Counted from the stretch's first letter, positions 4,692 through 40,973 are shown. The stretch: 64,000 bases of DNA from an uncultured Thermoplasmata archaeon (GCA_964394465.1 CAYMXS010000001.1:33484-97483), one strand, 5' to 3'. Numbers and translations are program-made. The notes: generated by a model not told the origin, from the letters alone.

Positions 4692-4747
4692 GGCTTTATA
4701 AGTTATGGAGATAAAAAACCGAAAGGTTTTAGACCCACCGAATAATT

Positions 4748-7222: not shown

Positions 7223-7224
7223 TC

Positions 7225-7893
7225 TTAAATATCCATCCGGAAACCGACGCCGCACTCCCTGTATTTTTTTGGATATCTCTCCTTGATCTTATCCAGGAGC
7301 ATGGTACAGTGGCACGGTACCAATACCGAGATATCTTCAAGGACGTCAAGGTCGCTGAAACCGTGGTAGCCACCTATCACGCTGTTGACCCTGCCCAACT
7401 CAGAGGCCTTCTCGATTATATTGCCTATCCCTGGGTGACCGCAGCCTGTGATGATGTTTATCCCATCCTTTCCCTCCACCAGTAAAGACTGTTCCTTGAT
7501 GGCCTTGCCCAGTTCACCCGTGGTGTACACATTTTCGACGATCTTCTCCCCTTCGGTAACGGCCATGAGGTCACCTTTCAGATCGAACTCCTTTTCTATC
7601 CTCTGGATCAGGGAGCTGGGTACGAATATTTTAACGTCCTGGTCCTTGAAGAGTGAAAGACCATTGAAATGGTCCCAGTGTCTGTGTGATACGACGATGA
7701 TATCGATATCCTCTTTGGAGATACCGAGCTGTTCCATATTGTGTTGAAGTATGTTCTCATCATGCCCTACATCGAACAAGATATCTTTATCTTCTATCTT
7801 GACATGTATAGAGACCCCCCAGTCTGGATACAGATCCTCATCCAATATCTTATCATCATACAGCACTGTGATCTCTATGTTTTCGTCTGACAT
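7225..7893 (-). CDS. MBL-fold metallo-hydrolase (paralogue A)
   Basis: 222 aa. VVSHRHWDHFNGL is the HxHxDH metal-binding motif. A C-terminal GCGHPG...HC block is shared with the paralogue at 12927-13574. Confidence 0.6.
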   Translation of the reverse strand: MSDENIEITVLYDDKILDEDLYPDWGVSIHVKIEDKDILFDVGHDENILQHNMEQLGISKEDIDIIVVSHRHWDHFNGLSLFKDQDVKIFVPSSLIQRIEKEFDLKGDLMAVTEGEKIVENVYTTGELGKAIKEQSLLVEGKDGINIITGCGHPGIGNIIEKASELGRVNSVIGGYHGFSDLDVLEDISVLVPCHCTMLLDKIKERYPKKYRECGVGFRMDI

Positions 7894-23214: not shown

Positions 23215-23964
23215 TCAATGTATCGAAGAGCCGCCGTTGACTCCGATTATCTCTCCGTTCACGTAGGAGCCCATGTCCGAAGCTAGATATAAAGCCGCTT
23301 CAGCTATGTCATCCGGCTCTCCCAACCTCCTGACCGGGATATTTTGTGCCCTTCTTTTTCTCTTCTCCTGGGAATAGCTGGAGATTATATCCGTATCTAT
23401 CGTACCAGGCGCTATGCCGTTGACGGTTATGCCTTCGGGGGCCAGCTCTAAAGCTAGAGCCCTAGTCAGTCCGAGAAGAGCGGCCTTGCTTATCACGTAG
23501 GCGGTCCCATGGTCGGAGCCTTTGAAGGCTAGTTGAGAGGACATGTTGATTATCCTCCCATGGCTCGATTCTTTCAGGTGTGGTAGTGACAGTTTGCTCA
23601 GCATGAAGGGACCTCTGGAGTTGACCTGCATCGTTCTGTCATAGTCTTCTATCGTGGAATCCTCTAGATCCTTCCTCCTGTAGATGCCGGCGTTGTTGAC
23701 AAGGATATCCAAACCGTTGAACTCTTCTGTGAATCTAGTGATCATCTCTCGGCAGTCCTCTTCTTTGCCCACGTCGCCCTGTAAGAGGATGCCTTCGCTC
23801 TTCTGGTTCACTTCTTTTAGCGTGTTGCTAGCCTTCTGTTCGTTGCTGTGGTAGTTTATTCCGACTTCAGCGCCTTTCTCCGCGAATTTAACGGCGATAG
23901 CTTTACCGATGCCTCTCGAGGCTCCAGTCACTATAGCCCTTCTATCCTCCAGCTTCCTCGACAT
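23215..23964 (-). CDS. Short-chain dehydrogenase/reductase (SDR; FabG-like)
   Basis: 249 aa. TGASRGIGKAIA is the cofactor-binding motif, NNAG is present, and YVISKAAL is the YxxxK catalytic motif. Confidence 0.85.
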   Translation of the reverse strand: MSRKLEDRRAIVTGASRGIGKAIAVKFAEKGAEVGINYHSNEQKASNTLKEVNQKSEGILLQGDVGKEEDCREMITRFTEEFNGLDILVNNAGIYRRKDLEDSTIEDYDRTMQVNSRGPFMLSKLSLPHLKESSHGRIINMSSQLAFKGSDHGTAYVISKAALLGLTRALALELAPEGITVNGIAPGTIDTDIISSYSQEKRKRRAQNIPVRRLGEPDDIAEAALYLASDMGSYVNGEIIGVNGGSSIH

Positions 23965-24154
23965 GTTTGAGGAATCCGATAGAGAGTAAATAAGTATTTT
24001 TCTTGAGGAAATTGTTAAATATGAAAAATATGTGTTGGTTGATGCTTGGCCTTGATTGGCTTAGGTTTCCTAATAAGAGCAAATGGCTATACGTTTGCTC
24101 CTACGGGGAATCAGAGATTCCCCTGAGTCGCAAGATTTCACTACGTTCAATTTT

Positions 24155-24229
24155 GCTCCCGTAGTGTAGTCCGGCCAATCATTTTGGCCTCTCGAGCCAA
24201 AGTCCCGGGTTCGAATCCCGGCGGGAGCA
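24155..24229 (+). tRNA. tRNA-Glu (anticodon CUC)
   Basis: 75 nt: GCTCCCG-TA-GTGTAGTCCGGCCAATCAT-TTGGC-CTCTCGA-GCCAA-AGT-CCCGG-GTTCGAAT-CCGGG... folds as a cloverleaf. The acceptor stem pairs GCTCCCG with CGGGAGC, and discriminator A is at 24229. The D-arm GUGUAGUCCGGCCAAUCAU is the archaeal tRNA-Glu form. The 7-nt anticodon loop has U33 and G37. No CCA is encoded. Confidence 0.85.
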
Positions 24230-24332
24230 TTTTTATGCGACCAGAGGGTTTCGAACTTTAGTTCGTGAACAAAATTTTTTGGTTAATTTTGTGAGCGTTT
24301 GGAATCATGAGTGAAACGAATGATTCTGAACA

Positions 24333-24354
24333 GAATCCCGGCGGGAGCATTTTT
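24333..24354 (+). repeat. Exact 22-nt duplicate of the tRNA-Glu 3' end plus flank (GAATCCCGGCGGGAGCATTTTT), 120 nt downstream of the tRNA
   Basis: Identical to 24213-24234. A third, partial copy GCGGGAGCATTTA is at 24407-24419. Confidence 0.8.
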
Positions 24355-24520
24355 CGTTTTTTCTAAAAATGCGACCCAATGGAAAAATCTTCAGTGATTT
24401 TCTGACGCGGGAGCATTTACACATTTCTGAGCCAAGTGAAGAAATTGTAAAAAGGAGGAATCTGTGATTCCTACGCATTTTTCGTTTTTTCTAAAAATGC
24501 GACCTAGTGGAAAAATCTTC
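24348..24520 (+). repeat. Two direct copies of a 45-nt hairpin-containing unit CATTTTTCGTTTTTTCTAAAAATGCGACC(C/T)A(A/G)TGGAAAAATCTTC, at 24348-24392 and 24476-24520
   Basis: 43 of 45 nt are identical. Each copy has an 8-bp inverted repeat GCATTTTT/AAAAATGC around a 10-nt loop. A loop-less shorter version GCATTTTTATGCGACC directly follows the tRNA at 24227-24242. Confidence 0.8.
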
Positions 24521-24597
24521 TGTTTTCTTCCAGCTCAAGAAGAACTCTAACCGCCAAAAATACCGATTTGAACTAAAGTAAAAAGAAAAAAGGGTTT

Positions 24598-24744
24598 TTA
24601 CTCGCTGCTTTTTATCCTGTAGACTCCGGTGCCACAGTTGGGGCACTCGCCCTTAACGGCGGGTCTTCCGTTCTTCATCTCGGTCTCTTCTGGATTCTTG
24701 ATCTCTACCTTCTCTCTGCATTTAACACAGTATGCTTTAGTCAT
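24598..24744 (-). CDS. 48-aa zinc-ribbon protein (MTKAYCVKCREKVEIKNPEETEMKNGRPAVKGECPNCGTGVYRIKSSE), DUF5679-like
   Basis: Under 60 aa, so absent from the ORF track. I translated it by hand. CxxC...CxxC spacing is present. It resembles a widespread small archaeal protein of the form MAKAYCVKCK...NGRPA.KG.CP.CGTKV.R. Confidence 0.5.
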   Translation of the reverse strand: MTKAYCVKCREKVEIKNPEETEMKNGRPAVKGECPNCGTGVYRIKSSE

Positions 24745-24796
24745 GTTCTCACTCACGGGAGCATTAAAAGAGGAGTATTAAAGGTTTACTTCGTAA

Positions 24797-25146
24797 AGGT
24801 CAGGTGACCGAAGTAAGCCCCTTTCTGTTTTGCCGCAGTTCTACCCGCTAGACGACATTCACCTGCGCGTCCTACCTGCCGGTCGCGGAAAGCTCATCCC
24901 GGCGCGTTTGGACTTGCTCCAGTGAGGTAAGTGGCCGTTTCATCGTTCCCTTCAGTTCAGTGCTCGGTGGGTTGACTCACCCGCCTTGCGGCGGACTTCG
25001 CGCACCTCATAGCTCCCCGAAGGACGTGTCGTTTCTGCGCCCTGAAACCTGGACTCTCGCCCCACCGCCTTGCGACGGTCCACCTTTCCTGTGGAGAGGG
25101 GACTTTCCTCAGGATGATCCCGTCGGTCGTCCTCGGTCTCCTGACC
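24797..25146 (-). ncRNA. rnpB: RNase P RNA (archaeal type A-like)
   Basis: A GC-rich, ORF-poor ~350-nt segment. On the minus strand it contains GAGGAAAGTCC, the universal P4 5' strand, near the 5' end. AACAGAAAGGGGCTTAC, corresponding to the ACAGAANCCGGCUUA region, lies near the 3' end. There is also a GGGTGAGTCAACCCACC element. The 5' GGTCAGG pairs with the 3' CCTGACC as P1. Confidence 0.65.
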
Positions 25147-25244: not shown

Positions 25245-26072
25245 ATGAGGCGCACTCAAGAGATCCGCCTAAGAGAGGACAATTTAGAAGATATAGTTTG
25301 CTGCCCCGGTGGTGCGGAGGTGGAGGGCAAGGGCTTGAAGGGTGACCTTGACAAAACTGTAGAATGGCAGAGAGAGATGCTCGAGGAAGGGATGACCGGT
25401 TTTATATCCTACCTGGGAGACGAACCAAGAGGTTTTATAGAGTACATGCCGGCGGAGAAAGCGCCTTTTCCGATAGAGGGCCCTGAAGCCGCTGTCCTGA
25501 TGTGTTACCACTGGGTACGTTCAGGAAATGAAAAAGAGGAAAGTCATCTCGACCATGAAGAAAGACTGATAGAACTTGTCTTGGACGATGCCCGGGAAAG
25601 ATATGCCGGTATAGCTACCCTCGGATGGGATCATCCCGTACATTTTCCAACCGAGATGCTGCAGGACCTAGAGTTCGAGATGATCGATTCCGAAGAACAC
25701 CTCTCGGTAATGTGGCACGCCTTTGAAGAGGGGGCTGAAAAACCATCCTTGGTAGGACCGAGCTTCGAACCTAGAGATTTATCAGGGGAATCAAAACTAG
25801 CCGTTGACTCAGCCCACAGCAACCGGTGCCCATACAGTATAAACAACTCGAGAAAATTGAGGGATGTTTTAGAGGAGGTCGATAAACAACGTATAGAGCA
25901 TATAGAGCACGTTATAGATACGCATGAGGATGCCATAAAATACAGTGTTTCTCCGTGGAATTGGGAGTGGCTCTATCTCAATGGAGAAGATGTCCCGATG
26001 TTATTCACCAAGCCTGAAGAGTTGAAAGAGATAATAGAGAAGAGCCTAGAAGGTTTAGTCAGTGACCGGTAG
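25245..26072 (+). CDS. Hypothetical protein, 275 aa
   Basis: A long ORF with coding-like composition. No confident family assignment was possible. Confidence 0.4.
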   Translation: MRRTQEIRLREDNLEDIVCCPGGAEVEGKGLKGDLDKTVEWQREMLEEGMTGFISYLGDEPRGFIEYMPAEKAPFPIEGPEAAVLMCYHWVRSGNEKEESHLDHEERLIELVLDDARERYAGIATLGWDHPVHFPTEMLQDLEFEMIDSEEHLSVMWHAFEEGAEKPSLVGPSFEPRDLSGESKLAVDSAHSNRCPYSINNSRKLRDVLEEVDKQRIEHIEHVIDTHEDAIKYSVSPWNWEWLYLNGEDVPMLFTKPEELKEIIEKSLEGLVSDR

Positions 26073-26772
26073 GCGCTTCAACACCTTCGATAACCCATCG
26101 ACCGGAAGATGAATCGTAAAGGAACTTACCTTTGACCACGGCTGGATCGTCGTTCGTGATTGTGTAATCTTCACTGTAATCCCATCCCTTTATACTGCAG
26201 CTTAAGTAGTGATCGCCACCTTCTAGAGGTGATAGCTCGAATCTAGTGGTATTGTAATTACAGCTCAAATGGTGGACGTCGCCTCTAACTTTTACTTCCA
26301 TGTCTTCATACCACTCTGGATTTTCCAGTAGTGATGAGATAGGTGTGAAACTCGAATACGCTTTTTTAGTTATCTTCAGGTCCGAGATCCCGTTGACCTG
26401 GATGGTGTACTCCTCCTGGTACTCGCTCAACTGCCCAGTAACCAAGACCTCGGAACCGGACCTCAGTTTCTTCTTTTCCTCCAAAGGTAGGTTCTTGACC
26501 ACTTTGTCCTTAACCATCACATCTATGGAGGAAGTGGAGAACTGTTCTCTCAGCACTAAAAAGTAAGTGTCCTGATACTTATCTAACTCGGTTATGAATC
26601 CTCTAGTCTTGATGGATGTTCCCAGCATATTGGAGTCAATGTCAGATATCTCTATCTCTTTCGCGTCCTGCCGTGCGGTATAAACGTACAGAGAGGACGT
26701 TCCTATCAAAGAGACGACCACACATATCAGAAGTATCTTGTTCTTCTTGTTCTCACCCAATATATCCAGCAT
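26059..26772 (-). CDS. Membrane-anchored hypothetical protein (N-terminal TM helix plus a beta-rich extracytoplasmic domain)
   Basis: 237 aa. The TM helix is KILLICVVVSLIGTSSLYVY, followed by a soluble, probably OB/beta-sandwich-like domain. It ends 5 nt from orc1. Confidence 0.4.
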   Translation of the reverse strand: MLDILGENKKNKILLICVVVSLIGTSSLYVYTARQDAKEIEISDIDSNMLGTSIKTRGFITELDKYQDTYFLVLREQFSTSSIDVMVKDKVVKNLPLEEKKKLRSGSEVLVTGQLSEYQEEYTIQVNGISDLKITKKAYSSFTPISSLLENPEWYEDMEVKVRGDVHHLSCNYNTTRFELSPLEGGDHYLSCSIKGWDYSEDYTITNDDPAVVKGKFLYDSSSGRWVIEGVEAPTGH

Positions 26773-26777
26773 CTTAT

Positions 26778-27947
26778 CTATCCTATGAATTCAGTCAGTT
26801 TCTCCTCCAAGACCTCGGCGGGTATATCCGCCAGGGATACTTTGGTCGTTCTTCCAGAACCGTCCGATATCGTTTTGGTATCCAAGAGCCCTTCGTCGGC
26901 TAGAGTCTTGATATACTTCCAGAACTGTGTATGCCCCAGCTTCTTCTTCTCGTACTCCTCGCATATAATATTATACGTTTCTTCTATCTCCCCTGTCTGA
27001 GTATAGGACTGCTTCTTCAGTTTTCGAGTGGAAGCCAGAAGGATCAGTCTCTCCTGCTCGTTCAGTTTCTTCAATTTACGTTCCGTCATATAGGGGTCAA
27101 CTTCGGCCTTGGCCGATCTAACATCTTCTGGCTTTATCTGGTCCCGGCCGTCCATCTCTGCTATCAGTCCCGCTTTTTCTAAAAGTTCAATGCCGAACCT
27201 GGCGTCCCCTTTTCTTCCAGATATATCGGCTAGAAGAGACAGCTCGCTATCCTGGATGGCGCCCGGATAAAGAGCCATCTCTGCCCTCTGCTCCAGGATG
27301 GGATACATCTCTTCAGGATTGTATTTAGGAAACTTGATCCTGTTGCTCCTTTTAAAGGAACTCAGGGCGCTCTCATCCAGCAGTTCGAAGGCGTTCTTCT
27401 GTGAGATCAGGAACAGGGAAACGCTTCCCTGAGGTGCTACACCTTCCTCGTCGAATCTAGAGAGTAAGTAGATCAGTTCCGACCCTTCCTTCTGTATGAG
27501 GGCATCGGCTTCATCTAAAACTACGATAAGATGTGTGTTCCTCTCCTTTATCTTGCTGTCTAGGGTCTTCATCATCTCGTCCACGGAGAAGCCCCTGTCC
27601 GGAAAGCCCTTATCGAAGTGATGCACTATCTTCCACATGGCGGCGCTGTTGTTGTTCCTCCTTCGACAGTTCACCAAAACGTGGTCCAGGGCCTGTCCCT
27701 TCTCCTTTGCCCACTTCTTGAAGTCCATGCAGAAACGTTTGGCCGTTGCAGTCTTTCCTGTGCCTACGGGCCCGTGGAGGAAGACGTTCTGCGAGATCTC
27801 GGAATCCAGCACGCCCCTGTAGAGTCCGAACAGCTCGTTCATCTGCTCGTCCCGGTTTGGCAGTTCGTCTGGAACGTAATCGAATGACAGTTTCTTTCGA
27901 TTTTTTATGACTCGGCTAGCGCTGTCTCTAAAGCTCATCTTAACCAC
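26778..27947 (-). CDS. cdc6: Orc1/Cdc6 replication initiator (AAA+ plus a C-terminal winged helix)
   Basis: 389 aa. The N-terminal motif is YVPDELPNRDEQMNEL. LFLHGPVGTGKTA is Walker A and IVVLDEAD is Walker B. A C-terminal wH domain is present. Confidence 0.9.
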   Translation of the reverse strand: MVKMSFRDSASRVIKNRKKLSFDYVPDELPNRDEQMNELFGLYRGVLDSEISQNVFLHGPVGTGKTATAKRFCMDFKKWAKEKGQALDHVLVNCRRRNNNSAAMWKIVHHFDKGFPDRGFSVDEMMKTLDSKIKERNTHLIVVLDEADALIQKEGSELIYLLSRFDEEGVAPQGSVSLFLISQKNAFELLDESALSSFKRSNRIKFPKYNPEEMYPILEQRAEMALYPGAIQDSELSLLADISGRKGDARFGIELLEKAGLIAEMDGRDQIKPEDVRSAKAEVDPYMTERKLKKLNEQERLILLASTRKLKKQSYTQTGEIEETYNIICEEYEKKKLGHTQFWKYIKTLADEGLLDTKTISDGSGRTTKVSLADIPAEVLEEKLTEFIG

Positions 27948-27957
27948 TCCTATCGGC

Positions 27958-28947
27958 TCACTCTATATCTAACTTCGCCCCGCAGTTTTCGCAGGTCTCG
28001 GCCGTGATCGGATTGTGCTCTTTACACACAGGACATTCCTTCTTTTCTATATCCTTGTCCTCTTCGTTTTCTTCTTCTGATCCCTCCACCAGGACCGCTT
28101 CTTCTATCACAGCCTCCTCTTCTTCATCTATCGTTTTCTTATGGTATTCTTCTTCCTCTGCGTCCTCTCCTATCGGTACCACTCCATCCTTGATCTCTGC
28201 ATTCTGGGCTCTCCTGAGTATTCCCCCATACTCTACGGAACCTTCGACTTTTACATCCTCATCTAACCACACATCTCTTTCACATGTTATATCTTCGGTC
28301 CTGGATCCGCTTTTGATGTGTATCTTGTCCTCGCCCATGATCTCCTTTGCAAGAACGTTCTCTTCTAGGTGGACTTCCCCCCCCTCTATAGCGCCTTGGA
28401 CCTCACTTTTGGTCCCTATATTCACGATACCTTCCTCGCTGATCACCTCCCCTTCTATTTTCACCTCTTTCTGGATATCCACATCTCCTACAGCAGATAT
28501 CGAGCCCTTGATCACGTCCTTTCGTCCGATCTTTACATCTCTAGAGGATCTTATGTCTCCCTGTACGACCATGTTCTCGCTCAGTTCTATGTCGCCTTTG
28601 GAGGATATCACTGTTACATTTTTCACTTCAGTTTTTACCTTTTCGAGCAGTATCTCGTTCTCTTCGTTCAACTCCTCTATCTCCCCTTTCAGTTCCTTCT
28701 TTTCCCTTTCCAGCTTATTGATCGCTTCTGTCTGAGAGTTCTCTTCCTTGTTTCCTCCCCCTCTCCCTTCGAGGAGTTCTTCCTGCCTCTTTAAAAGCCT
28801 TCGATTCTCCTTCTCTAACTCATTTATTTTCTCTTTAAGCTCCTTCTTCTCCTCCTTCAGGCTCTTGACCTGTTTGAGGTAGCTTTTGATCTTATTCTGG
28901 ATGTATTCCTTCTTGTCCTCTTCAGTGTTTCCTTCCATCGATTCCAC
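27958..28947 (-). CDS. Coiled-coil protein with a bactofilin-like (polymer-forming beta-helical) central domain, an acidic tail and a C-terminal zinc ribbon
   Basis: 329 aa. Roughly 110 aa of K/E-rich heptads come first. Then V..G.I/V repeats follow, for example VISSKGDIELSENMVVQGDIRSSRDVKIG..VIKGSISAVGDVDIQKEVKIEGEV. The C-terminus has EEEE...CPVCKEH...CENCGAKL. It lies 10 nt upstream of orc1. Confidence 0.55.
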   Translation of the reverse strand: MESMEGNTEEDKKEYIQNKIKSYLKQVKSLKEEKKELKEKINELEKENRRLLKRQEELLEGRGGGNKEENSQTEAINKLEREKKELKGEIEELNEENEILLEKVKTEVKNVTVISSKGDIELSENMVVQGDIRSSRDVKIGRKDVIKGSISAVGDVDIQKEVKIEGEVISEEGIVNIGTKSEVQGAIEGGEVHLEENVLAKEIMGEDKIHIKSGSRTEDITCERDVWLDEDVKVEGSVEYGGILRRAQNAEIKDGVVPIGEDAEEEEYHKKTIDEEEEAVIEEAVLVEGSEEENEEDKDIEKKECPVCKEHNPITAETCENCGAKLDIE

Positions 28948-29010
28948 TCGGTTTCGCTGCTCTAATTATATCTCAAGCTATATAAGACTTTATAAGAATT
29001 ATCCAGTATC

Positions 29011-29640
29011 TCAACCGTTCTGGATATTCTCTATTATGCCCTCCATCCTTTCCACCTCGAGTATGCAGAAAAGGTCTCCCCGTTTGGACAACCTTTTGAT
29101 GTTCTTAGCCATGACCTCTTCGCGGTGCTCCTCCAGTTTCTGGAAACCCTTCAGTTTGTTTATCAGGTTGTCCCACTCCATGGCGAACTCTCTTGAGTTT
29201 TCGGCATCGATGCTTCTCTTACCCAGTCTTTTCTCCCTGAACGACTGCCTCAGCCACTGTACGCCGGTCACGTGGTCACAGTAGGCCATGGTGTAATGCT
29301 CCTCGTCCATGTCAACCCCTTCGATCTCCTTGTCGTTCTCCCTGCAGTATCTGAGGAAGAAAATGTAAGACGGAGGCGGTAGACTGACCTCGCCGAAACG
29401 CTCCAGATTTTCCGCGTAGATCCTCTCCGGAGTGCTCGGCTGTATGTCCACATCCTTCGAATCGTCGTCTAGAAGCTGTTTCAACCCGTCCAGTTCCTCT
29501 CCCGATATCGGTAAAGTGCCGACTTTAAAATCGTGGTCCAACTTTTCGAGTTTTGATTCCACCCTCTCGGCTTCGGAAGTCAGTCCTTTAACCACGCCCA
29601 TCAGAAAGACCCTGGAACCGTTCAAGTTCAACTCTTTCAA
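29011..29640 (-). CDS. Hypothetical protein, 209 aa
   Basis: A coding-like ORF. Its start overlaps the stop of the upstream regulator gene. No confident family was assigned. Confidence 0.4.
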   Translation of the reverse strand: MKELNLNGSRVFLMGVVKGLTSEAERVESKLEKLDHDFKVGTLPISGEELDGLKQLLDDDSKDVDIQPSTPERIYAENLERFGEVSLPPPSYIFFLRYCRENDKEIEGVDMDEEHYTMAYCDHVTGVQWLRQSFREKRLGKRSIDAENSREFAMEWDNLINKLKGFQKLEEHREEVMAKNIKRLSKRGDLFCILEVERMEGIIENIQNG

Positions 29641-29641
29641 T

Positions 29642-30601
29642 CTATTTTGCCTCCTTCCTTTCCATGAGTATCTTCACGATCTCCTCCCTGTCATCTATTT
29701 TCTTCAGCTCGTCCTTGTCTATCAACGGGATCCCCTCTATGTTTGTATGGATGTACCTCTTCCGTATGAATATGACCGACTCTTTTTCGGTTATATCTGA
29801 AAGGCTGGACACTACTTTAGCCTTCTTCTTTATGTTCTGGTTGTCCTCCGAGGTTATGCCGCTCAGCATTATCCTGTCCTCTGCGTCGTCTGCCGTCACG
29901 GCCTCGAAGGGACATCTCTGTGTTGGAACTATCCTGTAGCCCATGGACTGGAGACAGTCGAAGACCAACTTTTCCAAGCCGGAGAACCCGTCCAGGGATG
30001 CTGAAGGCTTTTCTTCTTCCTCCTCTTTATGTTCCAACGGATTCAATGGCAGTATCAGGTCCTCCCCCAGGAACTCTTCCAGTTCCACCGCGACTTCAAG
30101 GTCTGCTCCCATACCCTTCTCGTACTTCTGTATGGACTTTCTAGAGACCCCGGCCACATCGGCCAACTTACGGAGCGATATCTTCCTCTCCTTCCTCGCC
30201 TGCTTGAGCAGCTCCGAGTCCATCTGGACGTAGAAGCCTCCCGGTGCCGAAAACACGTAGGGAGGAACGCCCTCCAGCATCATGTCTTCCAGGGTCCCTA
30301 TGGACAGTAATGGTATGCCTCTCCTGGAGTAGACCACGCCTCTTTCAAGCTCCCTTCTCCCCCCGTACTTCGCTATGTATAGTGGTGAAGCGTCCAGCGT
30401 ATCACTCAGGACCTTCAGACCTCTCGTGTTCTCCTCTCTCGTGCTGTCTGCATTTAAAACGGCACGGATGATGATCAGGTCTTCGTCTTTCCTGGCTATC
30501 AGATCGAAGGCGATGCCGCTCTCCCGATACGTGTCCGTTGTATAGAACCCGGCCTTCGTCAGGATTTCCTGAGCTTCCTGTATCAACTTTAATCTGTGCA
30601 T
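29642..30601 (-). CDS. Archaeal transcriptional regulator with a central HTH_XRE domain (COG1395/K07728-like architecture)
   Basis: 319 aa. The central LKQARKERKISLRKLADVAGVSRKSIQKYEKG is a Cro/C1-type HTH, flanked by N- and C-terminal domains. Confidence 0.6.
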   Translation of the reverse strand: MHRLKLIQEAQEILTKAGFYTTDTYRESGIAFDLIARKDEDLIIIRAVLNADSTREENTRGLKVLSDTLDASPLYIAKYGGRRELERGVVYSRRGIPLLSIGTLEDMMLEGVPPYVFSAPGGFYVQMDSELLKQARKERKISLRKLADVAGVSRKSIQKYEKGMGADLEVAVELEEFLGEDLILPLNPLEHKEEEEEKPSASLDGFSGLEKLVFDCLQSMGYRIVPTQRCPFEAVTADDAEDRIMLSGITSEDNQNIKKKAKVVSSLSDITEKESVIFIRKRYIHTNIEGIPLIDKDELKKIDDREEIVKILMERKEAK

Positions 30602-30660
30602 CTATAATTTAATTCATTGAGGTTCTATATAAGAATAACGGTCCTTTGGGGTTAAAACGC

Positions 30661-31323
30661 TCATATCCGGGTGCAGCCCCGCTTCAACCACTGCCATACT
30701 GCTCTTCGGACGTAGAAGAACGTTTGAGTCAGGGTCCTGCTGACACCTCCGACGTGGGTGTTCTTCCTCTCTATCTCTTTTATGGCCTCCTCCCAGGAGT
30801 CTACCTTTTCGAAGATGGTGTAGGATTTTCCAACGGTTTTCAGCCGGTGGCTGTCGCTCCCGCCCACCACGGGCAGGTCTAAACTATCTGCGAGTTTCTG
30901 GGCCATCCTGTTCTTCCGGGGCCAGGTCCTGCCGTTCATGCCCTCGATGGAGTCCCAGTGGTTGTCCAGTACGTTATCTTTGCCTATCCCGGACCAGAAC
31001 CTGAACGGGTGCACCGCTACTGCTAAACCTCCATGCTCCCTTATGGTCTCCACCGCGCTCTCTATGTCTTCCTGCCTTCCGATCTCCTCCTGAAGGCCCA
31101 GAGCGCCTACATGGCCTGCAGGAGTACTGACCTCTATACCGGGAACGAGGATCAGGTCCATATCTTCAGCTATCTTCCTCGCTTCCTTGTAGCCGGATAA
31201 GGTGTTGTGGTCCAGGAATGCCAGGCCGGCCAGATCTCTTTCTCTCGCTGCCTTCAGTATGTCCTTGGCCGAGGACTTCGAATCCCCCGAGTGCTTGGAA
31301 TGTATATGCAGGTCGAACTTCAT
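30661..31323 (-). CDS. PHP-domain metal-dependent phosphoesterase
   Basis: 220 aa. The PHP motifs are MKFDLHIHSKHSGD...LAFLDHN...GIEVS...AHP. Confidence 0.7.
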   Translation of the reverse strand: MKFDLHIHSKHSGDSKSSAKDILKAARERDLAGLAFLDHNTLSGYKEARKIAEDMDLILVPGIEVSTPAGHVGALGLQEEIGRQEDIESAVETIREHGGLAVAVHPFRFWSGIGKDNVLDNHWDSIEGMNGRTWPRKNRMAQKLADSLDLPVVGGSDSHRLKTVGKSYTIFEKVDSWEEAIKEIERKNTHVGGVSRTLTQTFFYVRRAVWQWLKRGCTRI

Positions 31324-31886
31324 CGCAATTCATCCCTGATGAGTTCCTTCATGTCTTCGTTTTCAGTGCTTTTCTCTAATAAGCTTTCTATCTTTTTCGT
31401 TAATAGTCTTTTCTGTCTCTCATCAGCCAAGGGTAATCTCGTCGCGTGCACCATCGCGTTTAGAAGGGGGTCCTCTCTGCTTAGACCTTTTTCCTCACCC
31501 CTTTCCTCCAGTATTTCTCCCCTGATCCTTTTGATCCTCGCCTCTCCGTACTCGTCCTTTTCGTGAGTCTCCTCCTGGTCGATGACCTCACAGAAGTAGG
31601 TCTTGGTGGCGTGCTTCGGGAAGAAGTATCCCTCGCTCTTTTGAAGTTCGTCTTTATCCAGTTCTGAATAACCGGTTCTGTTGTGCCCGGTCAAGGCAGC
31701 TTTGTAGAACAGTTCGTGAGAACAGCTCAGAGAGAAGGTGAATCTCGATCCAACGGATAGATTCTCAGCGGTGTCACAGGGCCGGTAGACCCTCAGCGTT
31801 ATGCTCTTGCCTTCCAAATCTCCTCCCATGGCCGCCGCGTTAAGGAATTCATCCCAGGAGACCACTATCCCCTCGTGATAGGTCAT
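31320..31886 (-). CDS. Hypothetical protein (DUF447-like; possibly a flavin-binding split-barrel-type fold)
   Basis: 188 aa. It overlaps the PHP gene start by 4 nt (ATGA). The family assignment rests on weak recollection. Confidence 0.35.
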   Translation of the reverse strand: MTYHEGIVVSWDEFLNAAAMGGDLEGKSITLRVYRPCDTAENLSVGSRFTFSLSCSHELFYKAALTGHNRTGYSELDKDELQKSEGYFFPKHATKTYFCEVIDQEETHEKDEYGEARIKRIRGEILEERGEEKGLSREDPLLNAMVHATRLPLADERQKRLLTKKIESLLEKSTENEDMKELIRDELR

Positions 31887-31931
31887 GCTGAGACCGTCCT
31901 ATCTTCTCGAGATGATGCTAAAGGGAAAAAT

Positions 31932-32363
31932 TCAGGCCACTTCCATACCGCCCTTCACCTGTTGGCCCTCACCCTCTTCACCGGGGAGGTTTACTTGTGG
32001 TAAGGGTATCGGCGGCGGGAGCTGGAGGTCCCTTGCTATTATAACGGCCTGGGGGATGCAGTTGTTTATTATGGTCGAATGTACCTCTTTGGCTATCTCG
32101 TTGGGCATCTGGTCCTTCTTCCTCCATTTCTTCGCTAGGTTCGGGTCTCCCCCTACGTGAAGTATCTGACCCTCGAGCTTTATGATACCCAGACCGGAGT
32201 AATTCGCTGTAAATCTGAAGTGTATCTCGTTCTTTTTCTTGTCCAACTTCTTTATCTTGGTGACCGAGCTGTTGTGGTCTATGCGCACGTTCTGCTGCTG
32301 TCCATCCGCATCACTGAACCTCTCTCCTTCGATTGAGTTCAATTTGAAGTTCTTTATCGGCAT
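31932..32363 (-). CDS. Hypothetical protein, 143 aa
   Basis: An ORF with a K-rich middle and a proline-rich C-terminus. No family was assigned. Confidence 0.35.
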   Translation of the reverse strand: MPIKNFKLNSIEGERFSDADGQQQNVRIDHNSSVTKIKKLDKKKNEIHFRFTANYSGLGIIKLEGQILHVGGDPNLAKKWRKKDQMPNEIAKEVHSTIINNCIPQAVIIARDLQLPPPIPLPQVNLPGEEGEGQQVKGGMEVA

Positions 32364-32471
32364 GGAAGGGAACTACGAGAGGAGCCTTTATAACTTTTTT
32401 GTGAGTTTTGGTCACCCGCCTTTTACCGCGTAGAAAAGGTTATATACGATATAGTTTCATCCGAAACTAAT

Positions 32472-32915
32472 ATGGGAAACGCCTTCTCAGTTCACCGACT
32501 ACTCAACATGGTCCACAAGAGGACGCTCAAGAAGTTCAGGCATAAACTGGAGCCATACGAGTTTACCAGGGGGGAGTTCCCCTTCCTGCTCCATCTACTG
32601 AGGGAGGGGGACGGCGTGACCCAGAAGGATATATGCGAAAGGATTCCTATATCGAAGGGCACCACGTCCAAGATGATAAACAATCTGGTCGATAAGGGAT
32701 ACCTGAGGAAGGAAAGGGACCAGGAAGATAGGAGGGCAACAAGGATATACCTGACTGAGAAGAAAGAGGAGCTAGAGGGTCTGATACAGGATATAGATAG
32801 GGAAGCGGAGGAGACCCTGCTGAGGGGATTCGATGAGGGTGAAAAGAAGGAACTGCATGGATATCTCGAACGTATATTGAAGAACCTAGAGGGAGAGAAC
32901 GGCCAAAATGCATGA
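32472..32915 (+). CDS. MarR-family transcriptional regulator
   Basis: 147 aa. The wHTH is GEFPFLLHLLREGDGVTQKDICERIPISKGTTSKMINNLVDKGYLRKERDQEDRRATRIYLT. Confidence 0.8.
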   Translation: MGNAFSVHRLLNMVHKRTLKKFRHKLEPYEFTRGEFPFLLHLLREGDGVTQKDICERIPISKGTTSKMINNLVDKGYLRKERDQEDRRATRIYLTEKKEELEGLIQDIDREAEETLLRGFDEGEKKELHGYLERILKNLEGENGQNA

Positions 32916-34308
32916 TAGGACCGAGGGTGTGAAGAAGCTTTTAGGAGAGCCAAAGAAAGCGATACTGTCCATCTCGCTGCCCATGATGGTGGCCATGCTG
33001 GTCAACTCCATATACAACATAGTGGACGGCTTCTGGGTTGCCGGACTGGGGGCCGATGCTCTCGCTGCTGTTGGTCTATTCTTCCCCTTCTTCATGGTCG
33101 TTATAGCATTGGGTGCTGGGATAGGGGTCGGCGGCAGCTCGGCCATCTCGAGGAGGATAGGGGCCAACAATAAAGAAGGGGCCGATAACACTGTGGACCA
33201 CACTATAATCATAGGTATAGTACTGGCTCTGGTGATAAGCCTCCCGATGCTCCCGTTCCTAGACGATATGTTCAGCGCCATGACCAGTAACACGAACGTT
33301 GTGAAGATGGCAACTCAATACGGCTCCATCATCCTGGGTGGGGCGTTCATCCTCATCTTCTATAACATGGCCAACGCTATACTGAGGGGTGAGGGAGACA
33401 CGAAGAGGGCCATGTACGCCATCATTTTCGGCTCGGTCATGAACGCCTCTCTTGATCCGGTACTCATATACACCTTGGACCTTGGGGTGGCCGGTGCAGC
33501 GTGGTCGACCGTTTTATCCATGTCCGCCACGTCTCTTATATTCATCTACTGGCTCTTCCACAAGAAGGACACCTTCGTTGACCTGGACCTCAGGCACTTC
33601 AGACCGGATAAGGATATACTCAAGGAGATATTCGAAGTGGGGATACCCTCCTCGTTGGCTCAGCTCTCCATGTCGTTCTCCATCGTGGCCCTGAATGTGA
33701 TAGTCATAGCTGCCGGAGGCAGCGACGGCGTGGCCGTTTTCACCTCGGGCTGGAGGATAATCAATATAGGCATCATACCTCTGATCGGCATGGCCATGGG
33801 GGTCACCGCCGTGACCGGTGCGGCTTACGGTGCCAGAGAAAAAGAGAAATTGAAGATATCTTACCTCTATGCGGTCAAGATAGGCATCATGATAGAGGCC
33901 GCCGCTTTCCTGATCGTTTTACTCTTCGCTCCCCAGATCGCGTATATCTTCACCTACTCGCCGGATTCGGCCCGTATCTACGGGGATCTCGTTACGTTTT
34001 TGCGGATCACATCTCTTATGTTCATAGTCGTTCCCCTGGGCATGTTGACGTCCTCCATGTTCAGGGGTGTGAAGATGGGTGTCAGGTCTCTGATCGTGAC
34101 CATATTGAGGACGATATTCTTCCAGGTACCCTTCGCCTTCCTTTTTGGTATAACATTAGGCTATGGATTGATCGGTATATGGGCAGGCATAGTTCTTGGC
34201 AATCTGACCGCGTCCGTCATAACCTTCATCTGGGGGAAGATAACCGTAGAGACCATCTTCGAAGATATGGAGGAAGAGCCGAAAAAAGCGTTCTCATCGA
34301 GCGAATGA
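32908..34308 (+). CDS. MATE-family multidrug/oligosaccharidyl-lipid efflux transporter
   Basis: 466 aa with 12 predicted TM helices and an N-terminal ...LGEPKKAILSISLPMMVAMLVNSIYNIVDGFWVAGLG typical of MATE/NorM. It overlaps marR by 8 nt. Confidence 0.85.
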   Translation: MHDRTEGVKKLLGEPKKAILSISLPMMVAMLVNSIYNIVDGFWVAGLGADALAAVGLFFPFFMVVIALGAGIGVGGSSAISRRIGANNKEGADNTVDHTIIIGIVLALVISLPMLPFLDDMFSAMTSNTNVVKMATQYGSIILGGAFILIFYNMANAILRGEGDTKRAMYAIIFGSVMNASLDPVLIYTLDLGVAGAAWSTVLSMSATSLIFIYWLFHKKDTFVDLDLRHFRPDKDILKEIFEVGIPSSLAQLSMSFSIVALNVIVIAAGGSDGVAVFTSGWRIINIGIIPLIGMAMGVTAVTGAAYGAREKEKLKISYLYAVKIGIMIEAAAFLIVLLFAPQIAYIFTYSPDSARIYGDLVTFLRITSLMFIVVPLGMLTSSMFRGVKMGVRSLIVTILRTIFFQVPFAFLFGITLGYGLIGIWAGIVLGNLTASVITFIWGKITVETIFEDMEEEPKKAFSSSE

Positions 34309-36926: not shown

Positions 36927-39900
36927 ATGAAGCAATCCTCTAAAATTGTATCCCTCACGGTAGTGATGGCCCTAGTACTGCTTCTGGGAGCGGTATCTGG
37001 AGCCCAATGGACTCGATGGAATCAGGATCAACCTCAAGAGAATTCTAAGGAAGTTAATGACACACACCTGATGACGGAGGACGAAGTGGAACAGCTGAAG
37101 AAGAATGTAGGAATGTACCAGCCCGGAGAGAACTATAACGAGATAATCAACGGGCATGGAACTGGCTTAGCACCACCTTCTACAGAGGATTACAAGGAGA
37201 TGGAAGGCTCTGTAAAGGTGGTGGAACACGTGGACTCTAACGAGCCCTTATCCGGTTCGGTCGACTTGACCGAAGACCAGTACTTCCCGCCGATAGGGAA
37301 CCAGGGTTCTCAGGGTTCATGCGCATCCTGGTCTACCGCATATTATGCCAACACGTACATGCAGGCGAAGGCCAACGGATGGGACGTTTCTAGCGGAGGG
37401 GACGATCATTTGATGAGTCCTTCATGGGTCTACAACAAGGTGAACGGTGGGAGCGATGGTGGTTCAACCCTTGCGGACCCGATGGCCCTGGTAGAAACGG
37501 TCGGCAACGCTGATATGCAGACCATGCCCTACGACGATTCAGATCATATCTCTTGGGGAGACGAATCGGCTTGGCGGGACGCTCCGCAGCACAGGGCCCA
37601 AGATTATGAATCTACCAGTGTCAGCAACGTAGATGTGGTCAAGTCTTGGCTCTCAGATGGTTTCGTTGTCAGCATGGCCGTAGATGCGGATCAGTACAAC
37701 TTCGACGGTGACAACGTTCTCTCCTCACAGGAATACAATGCAGGCAGCCCGAATCACGCCAATACCGTCGTGGGATACGATGACAGCGTGAGTGATGACG
37801 GTGAAACCGGGGCCTTCAAGATAGCTAATTCTTGGGGTCAATCATGGGGTCCAAACGGTGATGGAACGTATTACATGACCTATGACTGTTTCCAGACCCT
37901 AGCCTACAGTTCGGCCTATCGTTATACCGGGTCATTGTACAACGGCACTACATATCCTCAGATGATAGGGGCAACGGAGTTGAGTTCCACCGGGCCAAGG
38001 GATGCAGAAGTCGAGCTTGGAGCGGGCGACCCAGACGATCCAAGCGATACTCACTCCCCACAGTGGGACGGCGGCTCCCACGACTTTCCGTCCTTCATGT
38101 GCTTCGACATGACCACTCTAGAAACCGATGATACTTATTCTCAGTACTACCTTCACATAGGCTCCGGTTCCGGCTCCAGCACTATCTCGTCCTTCCAGGT
38201 CGAGGCATACCCCACGGGATACACACCAGGAAACCCGGATAACACATCCGGTGAATCATCTGATACCCCGGCAGATACCCCCGCAACGGTAATTGTTGAC
38301 TTCCAGGGTGGCGGAGGAAACGACCCGCCGGATGCTGCGTTCACTTATTCCCCTGATACACCAGCCGTTGGTGAGACCGTACAGTTCACCGACCAATCCG
38401 AGGACCAGGACGGAGGTACCATAACCGATTGGTCCTGGAGCTTCGGTGACGGTTCCAGCAGTTCTTCTCAGGATCCGACCCATTCCTACAGTTCCGAGGG
38501 TACTTATACGGTAGAACTGAGCGTGACAGATGATGATGGGGCCACCGCCACGGCCTCCCAGACCATAGAAGTCACCAGCGATGGAGATGACGGCGGCGGT
38601 GGTGGTTCCTCTGAGATGGACGAAGATTATGAGGACGGAGCCTCGGGCTGGAGCACGCAAGGTCTCTGGCATCTGGTTTCTGACTCCGACCAGTATGGGG
38701 ACAGTCACAGCGGTTCCAATGCGATGTGGTATGGTAAAGACTCAACCGGAAACTACGATACCGGTTCGCAGACAACTGGTTCTCTGGTTTCGCCTTCGAT
38801 AGATCTAACTCAGGCTTCCCAAGCTCAATTGACCTTCTACCACTGGTACGAGACGGAGAGCTACGACGGTGAGTACGATAAGGTCATGGTTTCAGTCAAT
38901 GGGGACCAGGTTTACTATAGAGACTCGAGTGATCCCAATGTGGGCTCCGAAGGCAACTTCGTGCAGGAAACAGTAGATCTTTCCTCCTACGTAGGTCAGA
39001 CCATATCCGTCAGTTTCACCTTCGATTCCATGGACGGGACCTACAATGACTATCGTGGATGGTATGTCGATGATATAGCCGTGTCTTCAGATGACGGTGG
39101 CGGCGGTGGAGGAAACAACGCCCCAAGCGCTTCCTTCACTTATTCTCCGACCGATCCATCTCCGGGAGATTCGATCCAGTTCACCGATACATCTTCGGAC
39201 GGCGATGGAAGCATAAGTTCCTATTCATGGGACTTCGGTGACGGTTCCACGAGTTCATCTCAGAACCCCACTCACTCCTACGGCTCCGAAGGGACCTACA
39301 CGGTTTCATTGACCGTGACTGACAACGACGGGGCGACCGACACGGCCTCGCAGTCAATAGACGTGAGTTCCGGAGGCGGTGGCGGTTCCACCGTGATTGA
39401 CGATGATTTCGAAAATGGAGCCTCAGGCTGGAGCACTTCAGGTCTGTGGCATCTCGTTTCAGACTCCGACCAGTACGGCGATGCCAACAGCGGTTCCAAG
39501 GCGATGTGGTATGGCCAGGATTCTACTGGTAACTACGCTACGGGGTCCCGTACAACGGGGTCCTTGAGCAAATCTGTGGACCTGAGTGGAACCTCATCAG
39601 CTACCTTGAGCTTCTCTCACTGGTTCGAAACTGAGAATTACGACAATGGCCAGTATGATAAGGTCATAGTTACAGTGAACGGTAATCAGGTCTACTACAG
39701 AGATACGTCGGATTCCAACGTCGGTTCTGAGAACAACTTCGTGCAGGAAACCATAGACATATCATCCTATGCCGGTCAAACGGTGGATATCAAGTTCACC
39801 TTCGACTCCATGGACGACTACGACAACGACTACCGTGGCTGGTATGTGGATGATGTCAAGGTCACAGCGGACTCCGGTGGTGGAGGCGGTGGAAATAGTG

Positions 39901-40799
39901 CGCCTTCAGCATACTTCAGTTACTCCCCGTCGAATCCATCTTCAGGAGAAACGGTTCAGTTCACTGACTCGTCTTCGGACAGTGATGGAAGCATAAGTTC
40001 CTATTCATGGGACTTCGGTGACGGCTCAACGTCCTCACAGCAGGACCCCACACATTCATATGGGTCCGACGGTACCTACACCGTTACCCTAACTGTAACG
40101 GATAATGAAGGGGCTACCAGTTCGACTTCTAAGGATATCACGGTCGGAAGTGGGGGCGGCGGTTCAACCGTACTAGATGAAGACTTCGAAAATGGAGCGT
40201 CCAGCTGGAGCACTTCAGGTCTGTGGCATCTTGTTTCAGACTCCGACCAATATGGCGATGCCAACAGCGGTTCCAAGGCGATGTGGTACGGTCAGGATTC
40301 CACTGGAACTTATGATACCGGTTCACCGACGTCGGGTTCATTGAGTGCTTCCGTTGACCTGAGCGGTGCGTCACAGGCAGAACTTACTTTCCAGCATTGG
40401 TTCAAGACTGAAAGCTATGATGGTCAGTACGATAAGGTCATAGTTACGGTGAACGGAAACCAGGTCTACTACAGAGATACGTCGGATTCCAATGTTGGTT
40501 CCGAGAACAACTTCGTGCAGGAAACGATAGACATCTCATCCTATGCGGGTCAAACGGTGGATATCAAGTTCACCTTCGACTCAGTAGATGACTACAACAA
40601 CGGATACCGCGGCTGGTACGTGGACGATGTCAAGGTCACAACTGGTACCACCTCTCCGACGGCAGTAGAAAGCACTGATGACGGTAGCGCTCCTCTCCTC
40701 AGTATGAGCGAGCAATATACCTCTCTTGATGCCTTGGATCACATGAACGTTGATATCGAGATCGATACGGCAAGCTATTACCGTCGAAAACTCTTCTAA
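36927..40799 (+). CDS. Giant secreted multidomain protein 1: signal peptide, papain-like C1A cysteine protease, then three units of [PKD domain + 150-aa GLWH/RGWYVDD beta-sandwich-type module]
   Basis: 1290 aa. The N-terminal signal/TM is MKQSSKIVSLTVVMALVLLLGAVSGA. C1A catalytic residues are present: QGSQGSCASWSTAYY (Cys), HANTVVGYDD (His) and IANSWGQSWG (Asn). There are three PKD domains (WSFGDGSSSSSQDPTHSYSSEGTYTVELSVTDDDG and others). There are three modules of the form EDFENGASGWSTSGLWHLVSDSDQYGD..MWYGQDSTGNYDTGS..HWFETE.YD..YDKV.VTVNG.QVYYRD.SD.NVGSE.NFVQETIDISSY.GQTV.I.F.FDS.DDY.N.YRGWYVDDV. Confidence 0.85.
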   Translation: MKQSSKIVSLTVVMALVLLLGAVSGAQWTRWNQDQPQENSKEVNDTHLMTEDEVEQLKKNVGMYQPGENYNEIINGHGTGLAPPSTEDYKEMEGSVKVVEHVDSNEPLSGSVDLTEDQYFPPIGNQGSQGSCASWSTAYYANTYMQAKANGWDVSSGGDDHLMSPSWVYNKVNGGSDGGSTLADPMALVETVGNADMQTMPYDDSDHISWGDESAWRDAPQHRAQDYESTSVSNVDVVKSWLSDGFVVSMAVDADQYNFDGDNVLSSQEYNAGSPNHANTVVGYDDSVSDDGETGAFKIANSWGQSWGPNGDGTYYMTYDCFQTLAYSSAYRYTGSLYNGTTYPQMIGATELSSTGPRDAEVELGAGDPDDPSDTHSPQWDGGSHDFPSFMCFDMTTLETDDTYSQYYLHIGSGSGSSTISSFQVEAYPTGYTPGNPDNTSGESSDTPADTPATVIVDFQGGGGNDPPDAAFTYSPDTPAVGETVQFTDQSEDQDGGTITDWSWSFGDGSSSSSQDPTHSYSSEGTYTVELSVTDDDGATATASQTIEVTSDGDDGGGGGSSEMDEDYEDGASGWSTQGLWHLVSDSDQYGDSHSGSNAMWYGKDSTGNYDTGSQTTGSLVSPSIDLTQASQAQLTFYHWYETESYDGEYDKVMVSVNGDQVYYRDSSDPNVGSEGNFVQETVDLSSYVGQTISVSFTFDSMDGTYNDYRGWYVDDIAVSSDDGGGGGGNNAPSASFTYSPTDPSPGDSIQFTDTSSDGDGSISSYSWDFGDGSTSSSQNPTHSYGSEGTYTVSLTVTDNDGATDTASQSIDVSSGGGGGSTVIDDDFENGASGWSTSGLWHLVSDSDQYGDANSGSKAMWYGQDSTGNYATGSRTTGSLSKSVDLSGTSSATLSFSHWFETENYDNGQYDKVIVTVNGNQVYYRDTSDSNVGSENNFVQETIDISSYAGQTVDIKFTFDSMDDYDNDYRGWYVDDVKVTADSGGGGGGNSAPSAYFSYSPSNPSSGETVQFTDSSSDSDGSISSYSWDFGDGSTSSQQDPTHSYGSDGTYTVTLTVTDNEGATSSTSKDITVGSGGGGSTVLDEDFENGASSWSTSGLWHLVSDSDQYGDANSGSKAMWYGQDSTGTYDTGSPTSGSLSASVDLSGASQAELTFQHWFKTESYDGQYDKVIVTVNGNQVYYRDTSDSNVGSENNFVQETIDISSYAGQTVDIKFTFDSVDDYNNGYRGWYVDDVKVTTGTTSPTAVESTDDGSAPLLSMSEQYTSLDALDHMNVDIEIDTASYYRRKLF

Positions 40800-40973
40800 A
40801 AAAACCTTTAACCCTTGTTTTTACTTTTTTTAGTTCCTTAGCCTCCTCCGATTTTTCTCCTAGAATACAACTTCTTAGCGCTGATATTCTACCCTTTTGC
40901 CCCCCCCATATATGGGGGTACGCTTTATATACCATATTCCTTTTTCCATTTTTGTAGATAAAAGGTGTTCTAG

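Follow-up and report, generated by a model that had tools for sequence, protein, structure and literature searches.

A Conserved Array of tRNA-Glu 3'-End Copies and Hairpins Downstream of tRNA-Glu Genes in an Uncultured Thermoplasmata Archaeon

Introduction

Direct repeats of the 3' end of a tRNA gene are a usual by-product of element integration in archaea, and partial tRNA genes left by the integration of 9-23 kb elements are well documented (PMC9897764). In this study, we analyzed such repeats in a 64,000-nucleotide (nt) stretch of DNA from an uncultured Thermoplasmata archaeon (GCA_964394465.1, CAYMXS010000001.1:33484-97483), here called the window. Positions 24230-24530 of the window, directly behind a tRNA-Glu(CUC) gene, are a conserved module physically tied to tRNA-Glu genes, with three further 5'-shortened copies of the tRNA end (17, 9, and 3 nt) and hairpins between them. 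As in the attL/attR duplications of integrase-bearing elements, the tRNA 3'-end direct repeat starts in the T-loop, lies downstream, and leaves the gene intact. However, 103 nt separate the first two copies here, compared to 9-23 kb in the archaeal cases (PMC9897764). The module also differs in having no integrase or cargo, in its three nested and shortening copies, and in the conservation of the array across distant hosts at both isoacceptor genes. Its short, gene-less, conserved form falls outside the published integration-derived partial tRNA genes (PMC9897764).

Short gene-less hairpin units are also found among miniature inverted-repeat transposable elements (MITEs), repetitive extragenic palindromic (REP) sequences, and PATE-like repeats, and a hairpin of the form GGGGAATC-N3-GATTCCCC is common to different tRNA loci and species. 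Unlike these repeats, the module units were confined to tRNA-Glu. No copy was found at tRNA-unrelated loci in the window, in the fetched loci L001-L033 (profile search), or in a pattern scan of the Genome Taxonomy Database (GTDB), and a generic dispersed repeat of the MITE or REP type, a concern of the initial annotation, was rejected. The locus further resembles casposon insertions and the leader-repeat logic of clustered regularly interspaced short palindromic repeats (CRISPR), in that a short tRNA 3' segment is repeatedly duplicated, the longest and presumably newest copy adjoins the gene, and the older ones degrade. The tRNA-Val repeats of relatives, at 14-15 nt, are like casposon target duplications. 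A casposon or mini-casposon was nevertheless rejected as a candidate: neither spacer S1 nor any tRNA-Val insert showed terminal inverted repeats on inspection, genes for Cas1 and PolB were not found, Cas1 being absent from the window, and the repeats at tRNA-Glu are 17-24 nt long.

Functional 3' external transcribed spacers (3'ETS) of tRNAs and tRNA-like RNAs exist, for example 3'ETS-leuZ in E. coli and mascRNA. Like these, the module is a putatively structured sequence on the tRNA strand directly downstream of the gene, and its predicted domains end acceptor-like. Unlike them, it comes from an archaeon, it combines literal tRNA 3'-end copies with imperfect complements of them, and it has no Rfam match.

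The tRNA-Glu 3' End Is Duplicated in an Array of Four Units

The tRNA-Glu(CUC) gene at 24155-24229 on the plus strand is the sole tRNA gene of the window according to ARAGORN and Rfam (RF00005, 60.1 bits). It is intact, has no encoded CCA, and is directly followed by TTTTT. The initial annotation had described an exact downstream duplication of its 3' end and flank and a further partial one, and both were borne out. The 22 nt GAATCCCGGCGGGAGCATTTTT at 24213-24234 (plus strand), here R1, comprise the last 17 nt of the tRNA, beginning inside the T-loop, and TTTTT; they serve as the reference copy of the repeat. They recur exactly (22/22) at 24333-24354 on the plus strand, here R2, whose 17 tRNA nucleotides were 100% conserved in a second lineage, B1Sed10, described below. 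With up to three mismatches allowed, the 17-mer had two matches in the window against a mean of 0.13 over 100 shuffles, none of which had two. GCGGGAGCATTT occurred three times, at 24221, 24341, and 24407, where 0.12 occurrences are expected by chance and 0/100 shuffles reached three. A fourth look-alike at 24755 matched 10/12 positions, which is at chance level. The third copy, R3 (24407-24418, plus strand), matched 12/12 and consists of GCGGGAGCA, the last 9 nt of the tRNA, and TTT. It lies inside a 33-nt block, TTTTCTGAC-GCGGGAGCA-TTTACAYATTTCTGA, with one substitution between lineages. A direct repeat of the 3' part of a tRNA beside an intact tRNA gene, as found here, is the pattern of an attachment (att)-type scar.

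The hairpin unit, previously given as 45 nt long, was confirmed one base further to the left, at 24347-24392 and 24475-24520. The two copies were 44/46 identical, the similarity extended to 56 nt at 89%, and no shuffle matched it. The 8-bp stem GCATTTTT/AAAAATGC reported for this unit is real and is lengthened by GGG/CCC. TGCGACCNNNNGG was found only at 24236, 24370, and 24498 within the 64 kb.

The region is built of four units, in which the tRNA 3' end shrinks from the full gene to 17, 9, and 3 nt. In units 1, 2, and 4, the tRNA end leads into a T-rich tract, then a GCGACC box, and last a tail with hairpins; T-tract and box stand behind both the 17-nt copy and the 3-nt copy. Unit 3 is diverged; its 9-nt copy is followed by TTTACA and merely a remote relative of the GCGACC box. 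The box itself is an imperfect complement of the tRNA 3' end. Unit 4 (24475-24530, plus strand), which contains GCA, T-tracts, and GCGACC box 3 (24498-24510), is a recent in-locus copy of 24347-24402, while the last unit in B1Sed10 copies the first trailer instead.

The Module Is Conserved in the B1Sed10 Lineage

A pattern scan was performed on one genome per GTDB species, using exact-match patterns that would miss even a strain variant described here (L019). The scan matched two contigs of the salt-loving Thermoplasmata archaeon B1Sed10_107R1, L015 and L012; the other matches were scattered singles in unrelated organisms, near the chance estimate of 4-5. L015 carries tRNA-Glu(CUC) and L012 carries an intron-containing tRNA-Glu(UUC), and behind each gene stands the array, with unit order and copy lengths as in the window. 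A metagenome scan gave strain variants of both loci, L018 for CUC and L019 and L020 for UUC. In this lineage, tRNA-Glu(UUC) has a 20-nt intron after the anticodon and is labelled tRNA-??? by ARAGORN (L012, 5434-5528; L019, 948-1042). The gene neighborhoods were unrelated among the three contexts, that is, the window, the CUC locus, and the UUC locus. A synteny route through homologs of the 275-amino-acid neighbor and of the B1Sed10 neighbor yielded no further tRNA-Glu locus, and the tRNA-Glu position is not syntenic.

BLASTP gave 45-47% identity between P0083, the AcnX-swivel/NUDIX protein encoded in the window genome, and the B1Sed10 protein, which formed the outgroup to all other sampled lineages. 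The two hosts appear to be distant, as judged from this one protein. Between the window and L015, the tRNA was 96% identical, S1 71%, S2 75%, and S3 81%, with R2 at 17/17 and R3 at 9/9; the 60-nt flanks on both sides were 39-47% identical, which is the random level. Conservation of the module thus clearly exceeds that of the flanking intergenic DNA. R2 and R3 together were unchanged at 26/26 positions at a spacer identity of 74.9% (p ~5e-4, our own calculation). The modules at the two loci of one B1Sed10 genome were 90-100% identical, S3 being 100% identical, while their tRNA bodies differed at 5/75 positions. That the array is under selection is shown by the invariance of its tRNA-end copies, by its covarying hairpins, and by a unit order and spacing common to two distant lineages and to the two isoacceptor genes.

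The Module Is Predicted to Fold on the tRNA-Sense Strand

RNAalifold and a count of base pairs were applied to four sequences, in whose alignment 98% of the cells were paired. Nine base pairs were substituted on both sides, compared to 0-1 in slid controls and 2.6 +/- 1.3 in shuffles. Eight of these double substitutions fall in three local hairpins (24265-24296, 24297-24331, and 24456-24472) and the ninth in a long-range helix. The tRNA-sense strand folded better: its z-scores were -3.5 for the window and -4.0 for L015, while the minus strand gave -2.9 and -1.25, respectively. All four sequences share several plus-strand G-U pairs, which would be A-C mismatches on the opposite strand.

Two closed folds were predicted in all four sequences, each of them ending with the 3'-terminal sequence of tRNA-Glu. 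The first, of 106-114 nt, extends from GCGACC box 1 to R2 and has an outer helix of UGC/GCA, CC/GG, and GGG/CCC around three hairpins; the second runs from R2 to R3 over 83-84 nt as a three-way junction closed by UCCCG/CGGGA. In the window, domain 1 (24236-24349, plus strand, 114 nt) is a predicted four-way fold in which GCGACC box 1 (24236-24248) pairs imperfectly with R2. Its hairpins are GAAC/GTTC at 24253-24264 and two longer ones at 24265-24296 and 24297-24331, which hold 7 compensatory pairs. The window copy has a minimum free energy of -38.2 kcal/mol, a z-score of about -4.2 to -4.3, and 27% of the ensemble. In domain 2 (24333-24415, plus strand, 83 nt), UCCCG from R2 is predicted to pair with CGGGA from R3, enclosing the hairpin of the initial annotation, GGGAGCATTTTT...AAAAATGCGACCC (24343-24377), GCGACC box 2 (24370-24382), and the hairpin GGAAAA...TTTTCT (24381-24403).

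Behind domain 2 lies a near-perfect palindrome or hairpin, TTTACACATTTCT...AGAAATTGTAAA (24416-24451, plus strand; z-score -3.1 for 24416-24474), in which 12/13 pairs never vary between lineages and one is a G-U wobble. It is followed at 24451-24472 (plus strand) by the Shine-Dalgarno-like AAAGGAGG and the hairpin AGGAATC-TGT-GATTCCT with an A-tract and a T-tract alongside, which is terminator-like on both strands. In B1Sed10, this hairpin is replaced by AGTAATGG-TCA-CCATTACT, so that the sequence is changed and the structure kept. No C/D-box or H/ACA motif was seen on inspection, and Rfam at E <= 10 gave nothing but the tRNA.

A leader element stands on the 5' side of the tRNA at 24102-24143 (plus strand) and consists of the hairpin GGGGAATC-AGA-GATTCCCC (24105-24123), then TGAGTCGCAAG. 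The element (GGGGAATCAGAGATTCCCC and TGAGTCGCAAG) is complementary to the GCGACC box of the trailer. In the window, the leader/trailer duplex had an energy of -27.2 kcal/mol compared to -18.5 +/- 2.9 kcal/mol for shuffles, and 0/300 shuffles were as good. Complementarity in L012 and L019 was at p ~0.03-0.04, and L012 has a perfect 10-bp leader/trailer match, GUCGCAAAAC/GUUUUGCGAC.

tRNA-Val Genes of Relatives Carry Repeat-Flanked Insertions

In one relative (L026, 11660-12130, minus strand), tRNA-Val(CAC) is followed by an 86-nt insert and a 15-nt repeat of the tRNA 3' end. Its 5' side carries a 24-nt hairpin and a 72-nt repeat that covers the leader and tRNA nucleotides 1-22. Neither insertion was present in L027 (11660-11940, minus strand), whose flanks are ~98-99% identical to those of L026, so that L027 represents the empty tRNA-Val site. 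L035 (13680-13860, minus strand) has a different insert of 92 nt after tRNA-Val with a 14-nt repeat of the tRNA 3' end, and in L042 (~7100-7250, minus strand) the insert measures 43 nt and its repeat 11 nt. No such insertion accompanies tRNA-Val in the window genome itself. The 86-nt insertion is homologous to the tRNA-Glu leader element of the window (local alignment score 43, compared to a maximum of 24 in 200 shuffles), and the motif GGAATC-N3-GATTCC, found in the window only at the leader element and at 24457, occurs in L026 as well. Since the tRNA-Val genes of relatives carry strain-polymorphic inserts flanked by their own 3'-end repeats, this clade has an active process for generating such units. 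In L035, the contig breaks off within the tRNA at about position 22-23, which is the boundary of the 5' duplication in L026. Contig breaks in sister assemblies were considered as a sign of heterogeneity and discarded, as breaks are frequent elsewhere too, for example inside the RNase P RNA.

A mobile element that might account for the array was also sought. The initial annotation noted that no integrase is nearby, and this holds for the whole 64-kb window: no integrase, transposase, or Cas1 gene was found there or beside the B1Sed10 loci, and the spacers of 57-103 nt showed no coding signal. IMG/VR pattern scans and BLAST searches gave no relevant viral, phage, or plasmid match. Three candidates for a viral or phage source were rejected, L007 being a coding-region coincidence, L008 a viral tRNA, and L034 the end of an RNA-virus contig. 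A tyrosine-recombinase core site of the form GGGAGCA-spacer-TGCGACC was also rejected, as the spacer varies from 6 to 21 nt. In the comparison with related genomes suggested in the initial annotation, neither an empty nor a cargo-bearing tRNA-Glu site was seen among the recovered loci, and the only related lineage recovered carries the same array. A pair of occupied and empty sites was seen for tRNA-Val alone (L026 and L027).

Discussion

Our preferred reading, held tentatively and with slightly less than even confidence, is that recombination at the tRNA 3' end gave rise to the units, which have since been kept as a structured extension carried by the tRNA-Glu transcript. An integrative origin is suggested because R2 starts in the T-loop, the tRNA-Val polymorphism is analogous, and the copies shorten away from the gene. 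Serial recombination or insertion at the 3' end of the tRNA gene would have built the array, like the repeat-flanked 43-92 nt insertions at tRNA-Val in relatives. On the tRNA-sense strand, read-through of the short T5 tract by RNA polymerase would yield an extended 3' trailer. This trailer would fold into two closed domains of ~110 nt and ~83 nt, each ending in the tRNA-Glu 3'-terminal ...CGGGAGCA followed by U's, and the GCGACC box could alternatively pair with the 5' leader. Such a layout would suit termination back-up, control of leader/trailer processing, or mimicry of the tRNA-Glu acceptor end. The structured small-RNA alternative, also raised in the initial annotation, seems to fit the comparative data best: conservation lies above that of the flanks, the hairpins covary, and the folding signal is strand-specific.

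Several observations weigh against this reading. Much archaeal transcription should stop at the T5-T6 tracts that directly follow the tRNA and R2, and L015, one of the three distinct loci, lacks the leader/trailer pairing. In the reachable data, the module occurs in two independent lineages only, so that each compensatory change counts as one event; the helices that close the two domains do not vary and hence have no covariation support. The module was unmatched in other GTDB species or in Joint Genome Institute (JGI) metagenomes beyond the B1Sed10 lineage, with exact-match patterns that would miss even L019. The high identity of the two modules within one genome, which reaches 100% in S3, might just as well result from a recent transposition.

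A wider and more doubtful proposal is that the module belongs to an undescribed class of tRNA-anchored arrays in halophilic Thermoplasmata. In such arrays, the role of the tRNA gene would resemble that of a leader: every insertion of short DNA next to it would duplicate its 3' end, and the older copies, farther away, would gradually decay. The array at tRNA-Glu would have been co-opted as a structured RNA with both domains ending in the acceptor 3' sequence. Enzymes that act on tRNA ends (RNase P, tRNase Z, CCA-adding enzyme), or a factor specific for tRNA-Glu, could then act on these domains or be competed for by them.

The main rival explanation is one or more active selfish miniature integrative elements, gene-less, targeting the shared tRNA-Glu 3' end and dependent on an integrase from another locus for mobilization in trans. 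In that case, the conservation would be due to horizontal spread and to att copies having to match the tRNA, and GAATCCCGGCGGGAGCA would be the sequence that the attP of such an integrase matches. We consider this unlikely, though it carries real weight. R2 begins in the T-loop, where tyrosine integrases classically cross over (reportedly described by Williams, 2002). The array occupies both isoacceptor genes, its surroundings are unrelated and its genomic position is fluid, and the modules at the two loci of one genome are 90-100% identical while the tRNA bodies differ at 5/75 positions. In addition, the outer repeats are homogenized within each locus, and inserts of similar size, flanked by repeats, come and go at tRNA-Val, one of them sharing a hairpin element with the tRNA-Glu leader of the window. 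The initial annotation's view of the repeats as an integrase-type footprint is supported to this extent: the repeats are real, and the T-loop start and the tRNA-Val analogs make an integrative origin plausible. Neither integrase nor cargo was found, in the window or next to the other loci, and the copies do not decay neutrally. Against an active element also stand the lack of any viral, phage, or plasmid match and of an empty tRNA-Glu site among the recovered loci, and the spacing of 6-21 nt between GGGAGCA and TGCGACC leaves no rigid core site. Units of ~100 nt are too small to be circularized for a tyrosine recombinase, and covarying hairpins and strand asymmetry are unexpected for double-stranded att sites.

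The initial annotation had favored decayed or serial att scars, that is, neutral remnants of past integrations at a tRNA hotspot. Direct repeats of tRNA 3' ends usually remain after archaeal integration (PMC9897764), and the copies do shorten with distance from the tRNA (17, 9, and 3 nt). However, decaying scars are contradicted because R2 and R3 are unchanged at 26/26 positions while the spacers have diverged by ~25%. The array is kept at two tRNA-Glu loci of a host whose compared ortholog is ~46% identical, with flanks at random-level identity, and its stems are kept by compensatory changes. We regard neutral scars as largely refuted and very improbable.

It is equally improbable that the units are degenerate tandem tRNA-Glu pseudogenes with a 5' end of GCGACC... 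and a 3' end of ...CGGGAGCA. The pairing of each GCGACC box with the tRNA-end copy that follows does resemble an acceptor stem containing a tandem G-A mismatch, and domain 1 has a closing helix and three arms. Nevertheless, ARAGORN and Rfam, even at E <= 10, found a single tRNA, and the unit bodies without the shared 3' copy had no significant similarity to tRNA-Glu (z <= 1.2). A degenerate second tRNA, which the initial annotation had mentioned as a possible source of the duplicate, was thus not detectable by these measures.

We give just as little credence to a DNA-level protein-binding region, either a replication origin with boxes (CCARTGGAAA) like the origin recognition box (ORB) near cdc6, or an operator palindrome. 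CCCAGTGGAAA in B1Sed10 matches what we take to be the ORB core. A cdc6 gene lies 2.3 kb away in the window, and the palindrome at 24416-24451 barely varies, with one G-U wobble in 13 pairs. The ORB-like 10-mer, on the other hand, was not enriched (6 found, 4.2 expected), no cdc6 gene lies near the B1Sed10 loci, and a relative that shares the cdc6 neighborhood (L021) is without the module. Protein binding would also leave the tRNA-end copies unexplained.

Least credible of all is that the module encodes small peptides, as proposed in the initial annotation for a frame beginning MRP... and for one behind AAAGGAGG: both open reading frames (ORFs) exist, at 24369-24467 (plus strand, 32 amino acids, MRPNGKIF...) and 24464-24550 (plus strand, 28 amino acids), the first 21 MRP-ORF codons are in frame in all lineages, and AAAGGAG is conserved 5' of a start codon, yet neither is supported as a gene by length, frame, or substitution pattern. 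The MRP ORF is 22 amino acids long in B1Sed10, and in L019 an A-to-G change turns its ATG into GTG and adds a pair to the hairpin. Its substitutions were spread 2:4:4 over the three codon positions (our own count), with no third-position bias. The second ORF has 14, 21, and 23 amino acids in the B1Sed10 loci, with unrelated C-termini, and its start codon lies inside a covarying hairpin. All minus-strand frames of the module were broken by stops, and a search of the translated module among predicted ORFs gave no protein relatives.

Duplicated tRNA ends are usually dismissed as integration debris. Here they are unchanged across hosts whose compared ortholog is ~46% identical, and at both tRNA-Glu genes they lie within a covarying fold with a strand bias. 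Archaea may thus have a regulatory or mimic RNA of a new, tRNA-linked kind, or else integrative elements of a new, gene-less class. The fresh tRNA-end-flanked insertions in related strains offer a natural system for studying how arrays are built. For annotators, the locus is a warning that a short tRNA-end repeat is not always a prophage boundary.

Genomic Neighborhood of the Module

The window was matched to contig CAJOVN010000002.1 of the archaeal metagenome-assembled genome GCA_905333785.1. The module region is bordered on one side by a short-chain dehydrogenase gene (23215-23964, minus strand) and on the other by a DUF5679 zinc-ribbon gene (24598-24744, minus strand). The archaeal RNase P RNA (RF00373, 189 bits) is encoded at 24802-25142, likewise on the minus strand, and lies upstream of the DUF5679 gene at a distance of ~60 nt. 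In L021, the RNase P RNA adjoins a homologous gene of 270 amino acids, and there is no tRNA-Glu at that place. A single orthologous marker protein places the window's host with halophilic Thermoplasmata labelled Ca. Natronoplasma and Ca. Saliniplasma.

Archaeal promoters and terminators were assigned by inspection only. A promoter-like box, TGAGGAAATTGTTAAATATG, was recognized by repeat detection and sequence reading at 24004-24023 (plus strand), ~130-150 nt 5' of the tRNA, where it may act as a promoter. It recurs as TGAAGAAATTGTAAAAAGG within the module (24437-24455), and look-alikes stand 5' of tRNA-Glu in L015 and L012.

A cluster of orc1/cdc6, an OB-fold protein, a bactofilin-like protein, and PDDEXK_19-HTH occupies 25245-32953 and is syntenic with L021. 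The region of this cluster may mark a replication-origin region; an ORB cluster was not found there. In L019, a 628-amino-acid protein with a bacterial DnaA-type ATPase domain fused to DUF835 (2993-4879, minus strand) is encoded 1.7 kb downstream of the tRNA-Glu(UUC) module. Further along the window, at 36927-53488 (plus strand), three giant ORFs of 1290, 1277, and 2844 amino acids stand in a row. They contain PKD, InhA-like MAM, and lamin-tail domains and are probably surface proteins.

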